Notes under the pieces: model-generated
What the model was told of the DNA's origin: nothing
Seen by the model: the letters and a program-made list of their open reading frames with translations, nothing else
The model's database searches: none
Shown: piece by piece, positions 38,931-52,186 of the stretch
Position numbering within the stretch: position 1 is the first letter of the stretch
How the letters are laid out: every line of letters begins with the position of its first letter
Program-made: the position numbers and the translations under genes
DNA from: Spirochaetia bacterium
Lineage (GTDB): Bacteria; Spirochaetota; Spirochaetia; CADAEX01
Assembly (NCBI GenBank): GCA_963662795.1
Contig: OY759746.1
Location: forward strand, 64,001 to 128,000
Direction: 5' to 3'
DNA: 64,000 nt

Positions 38931-40781
38931 CTATTTAAAATCCAGTGTTACTGCCCCGCCCCAGTCTTCCGGCGGCGGATTTGTTTTGAATCCTTCGCAC
39001 CTGTCAACGTACATTTTTGACAGGTAATCACCGGGGGCTCTCTCAAGAACCTTCTTAAAGTATTCTATAGCTGTAACCCAGTTGCCTATTTTATAAAGCT
39101 GAAGCGCTTTTTTGTAGGAGGAATCACTTTCCCCGTCCATCTGTACATCAAGCGCTGTATTTACAGAAAAAAGTGTCGTAGGCTCTTCCTTGCCCTTAAC
39201 CCGGACAGTATCAACCTCGCGCAGCGAAAACTCATCCTTTACCTTTAGCGCAACAACTTCGGAGATTATAATCTGCCTTTTATAATGTTTTGTAATACCC
39301 TCAAGCCTTGAAGCAAGGTTTACGTTATCGCCTATTACCGTATAGTCAAATTTATCCTGGCTTCCGATGTTGCCGACAATTACGCTGCCCTCATGTATCC
39401 CGATCCCTATACGAAATCCGCCGGGCGGCAGATTTATCCCTTCCACAGTAATTTCCGGAAGCTTGTTTATCATGGCGGCAGCTGCCCTGACAGCTCTTGC
39501 CGCATTATCCTCATAGCTGGTAGGGGCGCCAAAAATTGCCAGTATTGCATCGCCTATAAATTTATCGATAACTCCGCCGCTGTTTTTTATCAGGCTTACC
39601 ATGTGCTGAAAATATGAATTAAGAAATGATACTATTTTTTCCGCAGAATTATTCTCTGAAATAACAGTAAAAGATCTGATATCTGAAAAAAGAATTGCAA
39701 CAGATCTTTTCTCACCTACTTTCATTTCAGTATCGCCTTCTGTCTTTTCAAGCAGCTCATTGATAATTTCAGGCGGTACAAATTTTGAAAAAACTCCCCG
39801 TATTTTCTGTTCAATATCATGCACCCGGTTAAAAAGTATGGCATTATCAAGTACCATGCCCGCACCTTTGGCAAATACTGAAACATTATCATTTATAATT
39901 TCTGAAAAATAATTATTGCTTAGATTCCCGACATGCAGTGTCCCGATTATTTCTTCACCCTTTCCTTTTAACGGAAAAAGAGCATAGGAGCTGAGTCTTC
40001 TCTGGTCTGAACGGAGTTTATCAAAATCTTCTCTATCCTCAATTCCAAAAACTACATCCTGAACCTCATCATCTGTCTTGCTGTTTTCCCTGAAATCAGC
40101 AAGACAGATCCCCTTAAAATCATCAAGATCACCCCGGTATATTTTTACAGAAGGAAGCTGGTAAAGAAGCGCTTTTTTACCGAATTTCAATATTATTACA
40201 CCAAGATGAGCTTCGCATATTCTTGTCAGGAGAAGCAGTATCTCAAGGCATGACTGAGGCAGCGAGCTTATAAATCTTTCAACTCCGGCAAGCTCATTAA
40301 GAATTGTAGAACGGAACAGCTCCCTGTCAAACAGGTTTCCAAGAAGCTCCATTGCATTTATTTCATTGATCCCTTCTCCATCTTCCCTGATGAGATCCCG
40401 GTCAAGTTTAGGCGCTTTTGAGATAAGTTCTTTCACCAGGTCGCCTAGATGTTCGAGATTATCAAAATCCTTGGTTACAAAAGCTTCAACTCCTGAAGAC
40501 ATTGCCCAAAATCTGTCCCGGTCCTCAGACAGGCTGGTATGCATGATAATCGGAATATCGCGCACTCCCCGCTTTGATTTCAAAAGCCTGCTGAGCTGAT
40601 ATCCCTGCAGCCTCGGCATCTCAACATCTGAAATTATTATATCAGGGATTTCCCGGTATGCGGCAAGCACCCCGTCAAGTCCGTTTACAGCTCTGACTAC
40701 TTCATATTGAAGCTCGGTAAAAAATTGATCCAGTACGCCGGCAATAACATCTGAATCATCAACAACAAGTATTTTAGCCAT
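38931..40781 (-). CDS. Response regulator: REC - GAF-like - class III adenylate cyclase - TPR
   Basis: REC (VVDDS, SDVEMP, HTS, FVTK); cyclase FSDIRSFT, DKFIGDA, FDYTVIGDNVNLASRLE (Lys/Asp = ATP specificity); C-terminal TPR and PPEDWGG tail. Confidence 0.9.
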   Translation of the reverse strand: MAKILVVDDSDVIAGVLDQFFTELQYEVVRAVNGLDGVLAAYREIPDIIISDVEMPRLQGYQLSRLLKSKRGVRDIPIIMHTSLSEDRDRFWAMSSGVEAFVTKDFDNLEHLGDLVKELISKAPKLDRDLIREDGEGINEINAMELLGNLFDRELFRSTILNELAGVERFISSLPQSCLEILLLLTRICEAHLGVIILKFGKKALLYQLPSVKIYRGDLDDFKGICLADFRENSKTDDEVQDVVFGIEDREDFDKLRSDQRRLSSYALFPLKGKGEEIIGTLHVGNLSNNYFSEIINDNVSVFAKGAGMVLDNAILFNRVHDIEQKIRGVFSKFVPPEIINELLEKTEGDTEMKVGEKRSVAILFSDIRSFTVISENNSAEKIVSFLNSYFQHMVSLIKNSGGVIDKFIGDAILAIFGAPTSYEDNAARAVRAAAAMINKLPEITVEGINLPPGGFRIGIGIHEGSVIVGNIGSQDKFDYTVIGDNVNLASRLEGITKHYKRQIIISEVVALKVKDEFSLREVDTVRVKGKEEPTTLFSVNTALDVQMDGESDSSYKKALQLYKIGNWVTAIEYFKKVLERAPGDYLSKMYVDRCEGFKTNPPPEDWGGAVTLDFK

Positions 40782-40792
40782 GATGCCGCCTC

Positions 40793-50426: not shown

Positions 50427-52186
50427 TAACAGGTCTCCTCATTCTTTACTTTATAACTCTCAACTATTCCATTAAGCACACCGGCTGTTTCCTCAAGTGT
50501 GTTTGCGGTATCAGCATTTTCATCTATCGTCTGCGCAAATTCACTGATGCCTTCAGATATCTGTCTGAGAGTAATCAATATCTGTTCAAAAGCGTTCATT
50601 TGCTTATTTACAGATTCCCTTATTTCTTCGGTTGATTCGGCTGAAGTTTCAGATGCCTCCAGAATCCTGGTAAAAAGCCCTTCAATTTTCTGCGACATTT
50701 CCCAGGCTTCCTGAATTTTTTCTGAATCATGCTCAGATGACTGGATTAGCCTGTCTGAAGCCTCTTCAATCTCGCTTATTCTGGATTTTATCTCGCCTGT
50801 GGATGCTACTGTATTATCCGCAAGACGGCGTATTTCACTGGCCACAATCTCGAAGTTCTTTCCTGCCTCGCCGGCGGAAGAGGCTTCAAGTGCAGCGTTA
50901 AACGCTATGATTTTAATCTGCCCTGCGATATTGTTGATTATTTTTACAATTTCCCAGATACTGTTAATATGCTCTCCGAGAGTCTTTATCCCTTCAATTG
51001 TCTGGTCATAGGATAATTTTACCTGATCCATTTTTTCGAGGTTCTGCTGAATTGTTGAAAAGCCGTCCCTGACATTTTCCTTTACAGAGACAGACTGATC
51101 AGCCACAAGCTTTACCTGGGAACCAACCTCTTTTGAGAGAACATCAACATCCTCCATTGTGGAAACAACCTCGGTCGCGGCAGCTGCCTGCTCATTGGAA
51201 TATGCTGCATTCTGCTGACTTGAAGCCGCTACCCTTTTTGTTGATTCAATGATTTTAAAACTGGTTTGATGGATATCGCCAAGCAGCTTGTTAAAATTAT
51301 CAAGAATCGCGTTTACATATTCTGCAATTTCTCCAAGCTCATTAAAGTTGAGTATATTTATTCTTTTATCCAGATCTGAAGACTGCCGTGAAAGATCTCT
51401 GACAAGCTCATGTATTGAGCGTATCTGAAGCGTATATTCATAACGTGCCAGAGCCATAAGCCCTGAGGCTGTCGCAATGCATAAGACGCCAAGTCCGAAG
51501 ACAGAAAAATAAAAATCACCTGACAGCACAAATATTTCCCTGTTGGCATAGTAATAAACCACATATGCAAATGATACTGCAATATAAAAGGATGAAAACA
51601 GGACTACCAGGGTATCACGGGATCTTGAAAATCCGTCATACTCGCCTTCGCGGATTTCCTGTATCATCAGCTCTTTTTTTGCTGATATCAGGCTTAAATT
51701 AATAAGTATGGCTGTGTACATGCCTGCCATAACTCCGACTGATACTTTCAGAAGAATGCCGAAGATGTAGGGGATTCCGCTCTCGACTTTAAAGTGATTC
51801 ATCATATAGTAAGCAGAAGTGCCTAAAAACCATGTGCATACCTGAAAAATAAGGATTGTCCATGGAATTCTTATCGCGGCAATCCGCGCCTGCTGATATT
51901 TTTCCCCTTTTTCAAGATACGTAAACAGAGGACGCAGGAATGCAAGTATAATCATATAAAGAATTACAGAAAAAACTATATAAAGGGCTACTACTGCAGG
52001 CTTGAATGTAAAGACAACTCTCTGCGCAAAACTGAATCCCTGCCTGTCAAGCGCATTGTTGAAAACCGCGTTAAGGAACTCACTTAAAAACAGAAAAAAT
52101 CCGAGTATACCGAAATTAATAATACCCAGACGTATCTTTAAATAAGTGTCGATTTTAGACCGGTTTAATTTGTTTGATTGAATCAT
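50426..52186 (-). CDS. Methyl-accepting chemotaxis protein with ~6-TM membrane sensor + HAMP
   Basis: Six hydrophobic segments with short loops, HAMP (NELGEIAEYVN), MA QIKIIAFNAALEASSAG. Confidence 0.88.
   Translation of the reverse strand: MIQSNKLNRSKIDTYLKIRLGIINFGILGFFLFLSEFLNAVFNNALDRQGFSFAQRVVFTFKPAVVALYIVFSVILYMIILAFLRPLFTYLEKGEKYQQARIAAIRIPWTILIFQVCTWFLGTSAYYMMNHFKVESGIPYIFGILLKVSVGVMAGMYTAILINLSLISAKKELMIQEIREGEYDGFSRSRDTLVVLFSSFYIAVSFAYVVYYYANREIFVLSGDFYFSVFGLGVLCIATASGLMALARYEYTLQIRSIHELVRDLSRQSSDLDKRINILNFNELGEIAEYVNAILDNFNKLLGDIHQTSFKIIESTKRVAASSQQNAAYSNEQAAAATEVVSTMEDVDVLSKEVGSQVKLVADQSVSVKENVRDGFSTIQQNLEKMDQVKLSYDQTIEGIKTLGEHINSIWEIVKIINNIAGQIKIIAFNAALEASSAGEAGKNFEIVASEIRRLADNTVASTGEIKSRISEIEEASDRLIQSSEHDSEKIQEAWEMSQKIEGLFTRILEASETSAESTEEIRESVNKQMNAFEQILITLRQISEGISEFAQTIDENADTANTLEETAGVLNGIVESYKVKNEETC

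Follow-up and report, generated by a model that had tools for sequence, protein, structure and literature searches.

A chemosensory operon with a receiver-linked class III cyclase and a hydrogenase-type receptor in a Spirochaetia genome: a candidate H2/redox-to-cAMP pathway

Introduction

Which output is served by a chemosensory gene set that has no CheY and ends in a nucleotide cyclase, and what could a hydrogenase-like receptor encoded in the same set perceive? Both questions are raised by nine open reading frames (ORFs) on the minus strand of a 64,000-nucleotide stretch of DNA, hereafter the window (contig OY759746.1, positions 64,001 to 128,000, of the Spirochaetia bacterium assembly GCA_963662795.1). 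The cluster (window positions 38931-52186) encodes three methyl-accepting chemotaxis proteins (MCPs), two CheW-type couplers, CheB, CheR, a CheA with a C-terminal receiver (REC) domain and, as the last gene, a REC domain joined to a class III cyclase.

Non-motility chemosensory outputs are known mainly from Wsp, which in Pseudomonas comprises WspA-F with WspR and works through cyclic diguanylate (c-di-GMP), and from a few developmental systems. We found no characterised case of a direct route from chemoreceptors to cyclic AMP (cAMP), the sole studied link between a Che pathway and cAMP, Pil-Chp/CyaB, being indirect. A first-pass annotation, made from the letters of the window, had suggested such a route with the hydrogenase-type receptor as its sensor. 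Comparison with other Spirochaetota genomes, solved structures and the remaining chemosensory genes of the same genome gives a twofold answer. The module leading from Che proteins to an adenylate cyclase is a widespread, catalogued and uncharacterised variant of pathways of the type that serves alternative cellular functions (ACF), and the new element of the window is a hydrogenase-type sensor placed on the receptor class of this module, an arrangement otherwise seen in just a single near-identical metagenome contig. We consider it fairly probable that the cluster as a whole encodes a self-contained, non-motility, ACF/Wsp-like adaptive pathway with cAMP as output and an H2/redox sensor grafted on.

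Results

The nine ORFs would be transcribed in the order MCP1, hydrogenase-MCP (MCP2, hereafter Hyd-MCP), Cache-MCP (MCP3), CheW, CheW', CheB, CheR, CheA-REC and REC-GAF-cyclase-TPR, and they tile the cluster so that neighbours overlap or stand at most 12 nt apart. MCP1 and MCP2 overlap by 1 nt, an 11-nt gap separates MCP2 from MCP3, and overlaps of 41, 56, 20 and 4 nt follow at MCP3/CheW, CheW/CheW', CheW'/CheB and CheB/CheR, with gaps of 12 nt between CheR and CheA and 11 nt between CheA and the REC-cyclase. The 56-nt overlap shrinks to 11 nt if the 201-aa CheW' gene starts at TTG 45931, which stands behind a GGAGAGG site and is probably the true start. The ORF tiling and the Pfam/NCBIfam domain content bear out the first-pass description of nine co-oriented, tightly packed genes, as well as its statement that the cluster (38931-52186) holds no stand-alone CheY, CheX, CheZ or flagellar gene, for which the nine ORFs leave no space. 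Type IV pilus (Tfp) genes were likewise absent from the Pfam annotation of the nine ORFs.

The last gene (38931-40781, minus strand) encodes the putative output regulator, in which a REC domain (E-value 1.5e-18), a helix, a GAF domain, a second helix, a class IIIb adenylate cyclase domain (Guanylate_cyc, 3.4e-29) and a weak TPR match follow one another. The output domain is Guanylate_cyc (PF00211) and Pfam detected no GGDEF domain, so this is not Wsp in the strict sense (REC-GGDEF). Conservation was read from 14 output-protein orthologues at 47-100% identity, and D8, D9, D52, T82 and K104 of the receiver as well as D367, K407, D411, T481, N488 and R492 of the cyclase were invariant in 14/14. 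Judged by these residues, the receiver is intact, with its acidic pocket, phospho-acceptor Asp, Thr/Ser and Lys. In class III cyclases two Asp residues bind metal, a Lys and a Thr form the substrate pair, and an Asn and an Arg act on the transition state. The closest solved chains to the cyclase domain are adenylate cyclases, and the positions were read against 6fht, 2w01 and 3r5g. The K407/T481 pair is that of Pseudomonas aeruginosa CyaB (3r5g), which upholds the earlier call of ATP-specifying residues, whereas chain 2w01, the second-best solved match, has Glu at the Lys position; this chain was deposited as an adenylate cyclase, and we take it to be the guanylate cyclase Cya2. By this comparison the cyclase residues follow the class IIIb ATP pattern, and cAMP is very likely the product.

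Between the receiver and the cyclase, residues ~120-345 were predicted by AlphaFold (AF2) as a GAF fold flanked by long helices (predicted local distance difference test score, pLDDT, 92), and the top Foldseek matches of this region were the GAF domains of PDE2A, PDE6, PtsP and PDE5; Pfam GAF_2 appeared only below threshold, in 5/14 orthologues. The model thus places a GAF domain between REC and cyclase, an addition to the earlier domain list. The canonical cNMP-binding (cyclic nucleotide monophosphate) GAF motif is 'NKFDE'; its presence here was considered and dropped, the conserved stretch being NNYFS without the D-E pair. At the C-terminus of the protein (38931-38945), which ends in LDFK, the terminal Lys K616 is invariant in 14/14 orthologues, as are W607 and G609 just before it.

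The proposed kinase (40793-42997, minus strand) is a hybrid CheA with Hpt, H-kinase_dim, HATPase_c and CheW-like P5 domains in Pfam and a C-terminal REC (2e-25, residues 618-725). Pfam detected no P2 domain in it, while the flagellar CheA of the same genome does carry one. CheB (44398-45390, minus strand) has an N-terminal receiver (CheB_methylest 6.8e-54, REC 2.8e-22) and reached 328 and 303 bits with two NCBIfam CheB subfamily models, whose curated cut-offs are 342 and 293. CheR (43010-44401, minus strand; Pfam CheR 5.2e-30) ends in a weakly TPR-like extension of ~190 aa. What had been annotated as CheR-TPR is a CheR with a C-terminal extension, and the TPR part of the call is weak: the NCBIfam PEP_TPR model matched residues 323-424 at 2.5e-7, no Pfam TPR was found in the window's own tail, and TPR_2 was reached below threshold in 5/9 CheR orthologues.

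CheW (45921-46463, minus strand; Pfam CheW 7.2e-17) is conserved across related loci. The 201-aa ORF that follows it (CheW', 45371-45976, minus strand) has no Pfam or NCBIfam match of its own, and the slot between CheW and CheB is filled by an ORF in 25/28 related loci. In an alignment of 24 CheW' orthologues, three touched PF01584 (best E-value 0.0033), and the profile matched CheW chains alone in the PDB, at an E-value of ~0.08. The AF2 model built from this alignment (mean pLDDT 82) gave 18 Foldseek matches with E-values of at most 0.001, the 15 listed all being CheW or CheA-P5 (best 2e-7), and the next match followed at 0.18. The predicted fold supports the first-pass label of a CheW-like protein and identifies this ORF, by model, as a second, very divergent coupling protein.

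The module is not peculiar to this genome. Among the best 120 relatives of the output protein (47-95% identical), nearly all are 609-625 aa long, three being 500-599 aa, and where a source is named it is Spirochaetia, Spirochaetales or Spirochaetota, save for P0100, which is labelled Chlamydiales. Of 400 other Spirochaetota genomes, sampled evenly and searched for orthologues of the output protein, ~26 from eight families besides the window's own had a near full-length one; the two other genomes of the window's own family had none. When 31 loci from those 26 genomes were compared, CheA-REC stood directly upstream of the REC-cyclase in 30, the 31st ending at a contig edge. The same adjacency was seen in 8/8 named loci of metagenome-assembled genomes (MAGs; Treponema, Sediminispirochaeta), which brings the total to 38/39 and confirms the synteny of cyclase and CheA-REC in related genomes. 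These MAG loci (L008-L015) came from a profile search with the cyclase alignment, whose listed matches were mostly cyclase-domain-only relatives from many phyla. The order kept in the sampled loci is MCP(s), CheW, slot ORF, CheB, CheR, CheA-REC and REC-cyclase; a few loci have MCPs between CheR and CheA, one has no CheR match, and others have an extra MCP after the cyclase. A reverse search covered 29 places with a CheA-REC in other genomes (at least 33% identity, a two-cyclase variant excluded), and the cyclase adjoined CheA-REC in 27 of them, while one (G365) lies at a contig break. Farther afield, a deltaproteobacterial MAG (L035) has a REC-cyclase beside CheA, MCP, CheR and CheB, and no Che genes were found with spirochaete queries within 10 kb at L067 (Verrucomicrobia) and L084 (Chloroflexota).

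Some genomes carry the module more than once, with three copies in G326 and two each in G296, G362 and G368. These paralogous modules occur in Treponema-like genomes (L106, L111 and L113 in G326; L102 and L104 in G296; L108 and L112 in G362; L110 and L116 in G368), and two of them, L111 and L112, have a second CheW slot of just 43-59 aa and a CheA that matches in its C-terminal part only. The two-cyclase variant occurs in several further families (L152-L154 in G044, G032 and G056; by coordinates also G119, G029, G105 and G143) and consists of CheA-REC, a ~517-aa gene with a partial cyclase domain and a ~600-aa gene with a full one, often followed by an MCP of the six-transmembrane type. The window's cyclase and CheA are nearest (44-55%) to genomes that share only the phylum (families f54, f39, f40, f43) and farther (28-44%) from genomes of the same class (f2, f8), and within the window's family the other genus lacks the module; this pattern of identities may reflect horizontal transfer or unequal rates.

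The three receptors of the window differ in their sensory parts. MCP3 (46423-48408, minus strand) has two transmembrane (TM) segments and a periplasmic Cache domain followed by HAMP and MCPsignal (Cache_3-Cache_2 1.9e-19, HAMP 1.2e-7, MCPsignal 1.1e-27), and its orthologues are present in most related loci. MCP1 (50426-52186, minus strand; MCPsignal 2.8e-26) has no recognisable ligand-binding domain. Its earlier description as a six-TM receptor stands as far as multiple TM segments are concerned, the exact count being less certain at 5-6 hydrophobic segments in a simple hydropathy scan. Orthologues of MCP1 with a matching N-terminus (40-43% identity) lie in other Che-cyclase loci (L089, L090, L098, L153, L154). 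MCP2, that is Hyd-MCP (48420-50426, minus strand), is predicted to be cytoplasmic, with no hydrophobic segment in a hydropathy scan, and has matches to Fer4, Fe_hyd_lg_C (2.4e-28), the FeS domain PF04060 and MCPsignal (5.3e-23). It is composed, in this order, of two [4Fe-4S] ferredoxin domains, an [FeFe]-hydrogenase H-domain, a Cx2Cx4Cx16C motif at residues 398-425 and an MCP hairpin.

All three carry one class of signalling domain, which is private to the Che-cyclase cluster. A hidden Markov model (HMM) of this class, built solely from 45 cluster MCPs of other genomes, scored 340.9 bits with the Cache-MCP, 281.9 with the multi-TM MCP and 204.2 with Hyd-MCP, while the genome's 14 other MCP-like ORFs reached at most 80.1 bits. 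From the tip of the hairpin to the C-terminus, MCP1 and MCP3 span 152 and 150 aa, each ~20 heptads plus a tail, and Hyd-MCP 115 aa, a comparison of length alone with the 40-heptad ACF receptor class.

The hydrogenase half of Hyd-MCP has a wholly different distribution. It was matched in 86/401 Spirochaetota genomes, with ~65 orphan homologues (48-59% identical, ORF length 600-760 aa), and in every other genome that holds both a Hyd-MCP and a Che-cyclase module the genes are on separate contigs or far apart (e.g. 83 kb in G347). Twenty-one Hyd-MCP ORFs from 20 other genomes reached at most 93.4 bits with the cluster-class HMM, and more distant metagenome Hyd-MCPs (38-46% identity) at most 74 bits. 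The window genome itself has a second, orphan Hyd-MCP (C1:2716413-2718527; L007:4414-6528), located between arginine decarboxylase and glycogen phosphorylase; its sensor half is 54% identical to that of the in-cluster copy and its signalling class is different (59.9 bits). BLAST places the break between sensor and signalling parts between residues ~430 and 479. Because a widespread hydrogenase sensor half is joined here to a signalling half of the cluster class, as the contrast in HMM scores indicates, the in-cluster Hyd-MCP looks by sequence like a chimera, in which a common hydrogenase-type sensor sits on a signalling part that only the Che-cyclase cluster uses.

The only other place with this arrangement is a 3.8-kb metagenome contig (94% identity) that keeps the order MCP1, Hyd-MCP, MCP3. 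The expectation that CheA-REC, REC-cyclase and Hyd-MCP would recur as one neighbourhood holds for the first two, which are kept together in 30/31 sampled loci, and fails for Hyd-MCP, which is found in none (0/31) and consequently does not belong to the conserved module. Since Hyd-MCP lies outside that module, any H2/redox-to-cAMP link would be a lineage-specific add-on. In L122 (G031) and L133 (G016), an orphan-type Hyd-MCP adjoins genes for CheB-like, CheR-like and receiver proteins, which makes up a small Che-type neighbourhood of another kind.

In [FeFe] hydrogenases the H-cluster is held by cysteines of three motifs, P1, P2 and P3. The window's 'AQPCP' aligns to 'TSCCP' (P1) and 'SPCYAKKRE' to 'MPCIAKKYE' (P2) of solved [FeFe] hydrogenases, and P3 was read directly as 'CERGCNGGPG'. 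The four H-cluster-ligating cysteines accordingly appear to be kept, those of P1 and P2 by alignment and those of P3 by reading. Pro stands in place of the first of the two P1 cysteines, presumably the proton-relay Cys of group A, and Ser in place of the P2 Met. Seven Fe_hyd_lg_C domains occur genome-wide, and three group-A-like hydrogenases are among the proteins of the genome. HydF (470 bits) and HydE (328 bits) were found, each above its cut-off; the two genes lie at C1:1018759-1022403 with an aspartate-ammonia-lyase-like gene between them.

The genome has two further Che systems. A second cheA adjoins flaA, a cheW-cheR fusion, cheX and cheY, and a third cluster holds cheW, STAS, cheA, cheR, cheB, an MCP-like gene, cheY and cheD. 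Because both have a CheY of their own, the focal cluster need neither borrow nor lend one. Several stand-alone receivers lie near the flagellar Che cluster. With 10 class III cyclase domains and 19 cNMP_binding matches in the genome, cAMP signalling is evidently elaborate in this organism, as far as gene content can tell.

Discussion

The reading favoured here builds on the anatomy of the cluster, the intact catalytic residues, the conserved synteny and the match in receptor class. In the mechanism we propose, the three receptors would assemble into a single array together with CheW, CheW' and CheA's P5 domain, and the state of these receptors would set CheA autophosphorylation on the Hpt histidine. 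Phosphoryl groups could then pass to three receivers, those of CheB, of CheA's own C-terminus and, at D52, of the REC-GAF-cyclase, with CheB providing adaptation opposed by CheR; the transfer from CheA to the cyclase is likely. Phosphorylation of D52, relayed by the helical linkers and the GAF domain, would alter how the cyclase homodimer is arranged and thereby raise or lower the synthesis of cAMP, which the many cNMP-binding proteins of the genome could read out. Elsewhere the module would be served by Cache and multi-TM receptors only, and in this lineage the recombination of a hydrogenase-type sensor onto a cluster-class signalling domain would add a cytoplasmic H2 or redox input.

Judged on architecture, the likeness to Wsp and other ACF systems proposed in the first-pass annotation holds, with a hybrid CheA-REC, two CheW-type couplers, CheB, a CheR with a weakly TPR-like C-terminal extension and, in place of CheY, a multidomain regulator, encoded last in the operon, whose receiver is fused to a nucleotide cyclase. 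Among the features given for the ACF family are a multidomain regulator, CheR-TPR and the lack of CheY (PMC3447774), and the cluster agrees with these, though weakly as regards the TPR part. The cluster differs from Wsp in that the GGDEF diguanylate cyclase output is replaced by a class III adenylate cyclase with GAF and TPR tail, three receptors stand in place of one, the gene order is another, and the host is a spirochaete.

The claim that no characterised system has this combination stands insofar as searches of the full-text literature turned up no experiments on a Che pathway whose output is a receiver-cyclase; the papers there on chemosensory systems and cAMP concern Pil-Chp/CyaB. The wiring itself is not new to print, a 'REC - CHD mononucleotidyl cyclase' regulator having been tabulated in 2012 for a CheR-TPR cluster of the delta proteobacterium NaphS2 (Munoz-Martinez et al. 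2012, PMC3447774, Table S2). This is the only printed record we found of a Che cluster with a receiver-cyclase response regulator, and it differs from the present case in being a table row in another phylum, with no analysis, hydrogenase receptor or experiment.

The Pil-Chp/CyaB system of Pseudomonas aeruginosa is alike in that a chemosensory pathway acts on a class IIIb cyclase, one with an identical K/T pair, to raise cAMP. CyaB lacks a receiver and its control is indirect, by way of PilG, whereas the cyclase of the window has an intact receiver of its own, is encoded beside CheA, and stands in a cluster free of Tfp genes. Spirulina platensis CyaC likewise combines a receiver, GAF and a class IIIb cyclase, and phosphorylation of its receiver activates the cyclase (PMC3009899), a precedent for activation in the window protein; CyaC has its own histidine kinase domain, in contrast to the separate CheA under chemoreceptor and methylation control proposed here.

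As for Hyd-MCP, it resembles the group C and group D [FeFe] hydrogenases regarded as putative sensors (HydS) in that the H-cluster cysteines are retained, the proton path is altered, an extra four-Cys motif lies C-terminally and a signalling domain is fused on. HydDB has an MCP-fused subgroup, 'C2, chemotactic'; a paper naming group C2 did not describe it. HydS of Thermotoga maritima and Thermoanaerobacter mathranii is fused to a PAS domain and the window protein to an MCP hairpin, of the class that serves the cAMP-type Che pathway and is absent from the 21 other Hyd-MCPs and the second copy in the genome.

Several findings weigh against the pathway favoured here, and the alternatives draw on them. 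HydG is needed for building the [2Fe] subcluster, and searches of the window genome with TIGR03955, with the BATS domain and, in blastp, with HydE as query did not find it, this genome being a single, gap-free 3.93-Mb contig with no N or masked bases. The Cys-to-Pro change in P1 fits a sensor and equally an inactive Fe-S redox protein. Within a pathway otherwise as described, Hyd-MCP might read general redox state (the ferredoxin/Fe-S pool or O2 damage) without a functional [2Fe] subcluster, an alternative that is also favoured by the Met-to-Ser change in P2, the two ferredoxin-type clusters and the extra Cx2Cx4Cx16C motif, and that stays alive because the missing HydG is unexplained. The retention of all four H-cluster cysteines argues the other way, as does the presence of HydE and HydF in a genome whose three catalytic-type hydrogenases need equal maturation; moreover, HydS from T. 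maritima and from T. mathranii, both putative sensors, have been described as having altered proton paths and very low activity (PMC11023054, PMC11216029). We regard a general redox sensor as rather unlikely but well worth keeping in mind, and H2 itself as the ligand as a possibility for which our confidence falls somewhat short of even. The lack of any match to the hydrogenase half in 31/31 related Che-cyclase loci is a further adverse point, one that is uninformative on the function of the module at large, and another is that a single consensus methylation motif was found across the three MCPs.

Other objections concern the output. The REC-cyclase might act as a phosphate sink or take its phosphate from another kinase, and the true output might run through CheA's own REC or a CheY from another locus to the periplasmic flagella. 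A CheA-REC has been described in the flagellar classes F3 and F5, and in Tfp systems as well (PMC10782961), stand-alone receivers are at hand near the flagellar Che cluster, and in one genome (G175) an orthologous CheA-REC has no adjacent cyclase, being followed by uracil phosphoribosyltransferase and methionine synthase. This alternative nevertheless appears improbable in view of the adjacency of CheA-REC and cyclase in 38/39 loci across eight families besides the window's own, the invariant catalytic residues of receiver and cyclase, the CheY proteins that the two other Che systems have of their own, and a receptor class private to this cluster. A product other than cAMP, e.g. cyclic GMP or another nucleotide, is more remote still: PF00211 spans adenylate and guanylate cyclases, and 2w01, if indeed a guanylate cyclase, points in that direction, but the invariant Lys/Thr specificity pair is shared with CyaB and not with 2w01, where Glu takes the place of Lys.

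If the cAMP pathway favoured here is correct, the presence of the conserved operon in many spirochaetes, sometimes in 2-3 copies, would make it a general and experimentally tractable case. The window version offers H2 as a candidate ligand, which is unusual for ACF pathways, whose signals are mostly unknown, and Hyd-MCP would be a clean natural example of pathway rewiring through a swapped receptor signalling module. A bolder and rather doubtful extension is that this lineage has rewired an H2 sensor from chemotaxis to second-messenger control, so that intracellular H2/redox poise, processed with array gain and methylation adaptation, is reported as cAMP; cAMP would then tune fermentation and H2 metabolism via the cNMP-binding proteins, and the conserved operon would, in a wider view, define a pathway family in which chemoreceptor arrays drive cAMP by directly phosphorylating a cyclase.

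Surroundings of the cluster

Unrelated genes on the opposite strand flank the cluster: below it come a 124-aa ORF and an ABC-F ATPase, above it a GNAT acetyltransferase followed by a TRAP transporter. In the 127-nt divergent gap upstream of MCP1 lies a weak promoter-like site (TTTACT-16-TATTAT, 52284-52311, minus strand) with 9/12 consensus matches. Promoter and terminator scans barely exceeded shuffled expectation, with 44 promoter-like sites in the scanned region against 31 expected from shuffles.

Two other loci of the window, both on the minus strand, drew attention. At 27627-28725, a HAMP ORF (28078-28725) overlaps, in another frame, a 175-aa open frame with a cyclase match (27657-28148), and the region has the look of a TM-HAMP-class III cyclase gene broken by a frameshift, or of an error in sequencing. 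At 59635-60906, a small RelA/SpoT-type synthetase domain is fused with TPR repeats.

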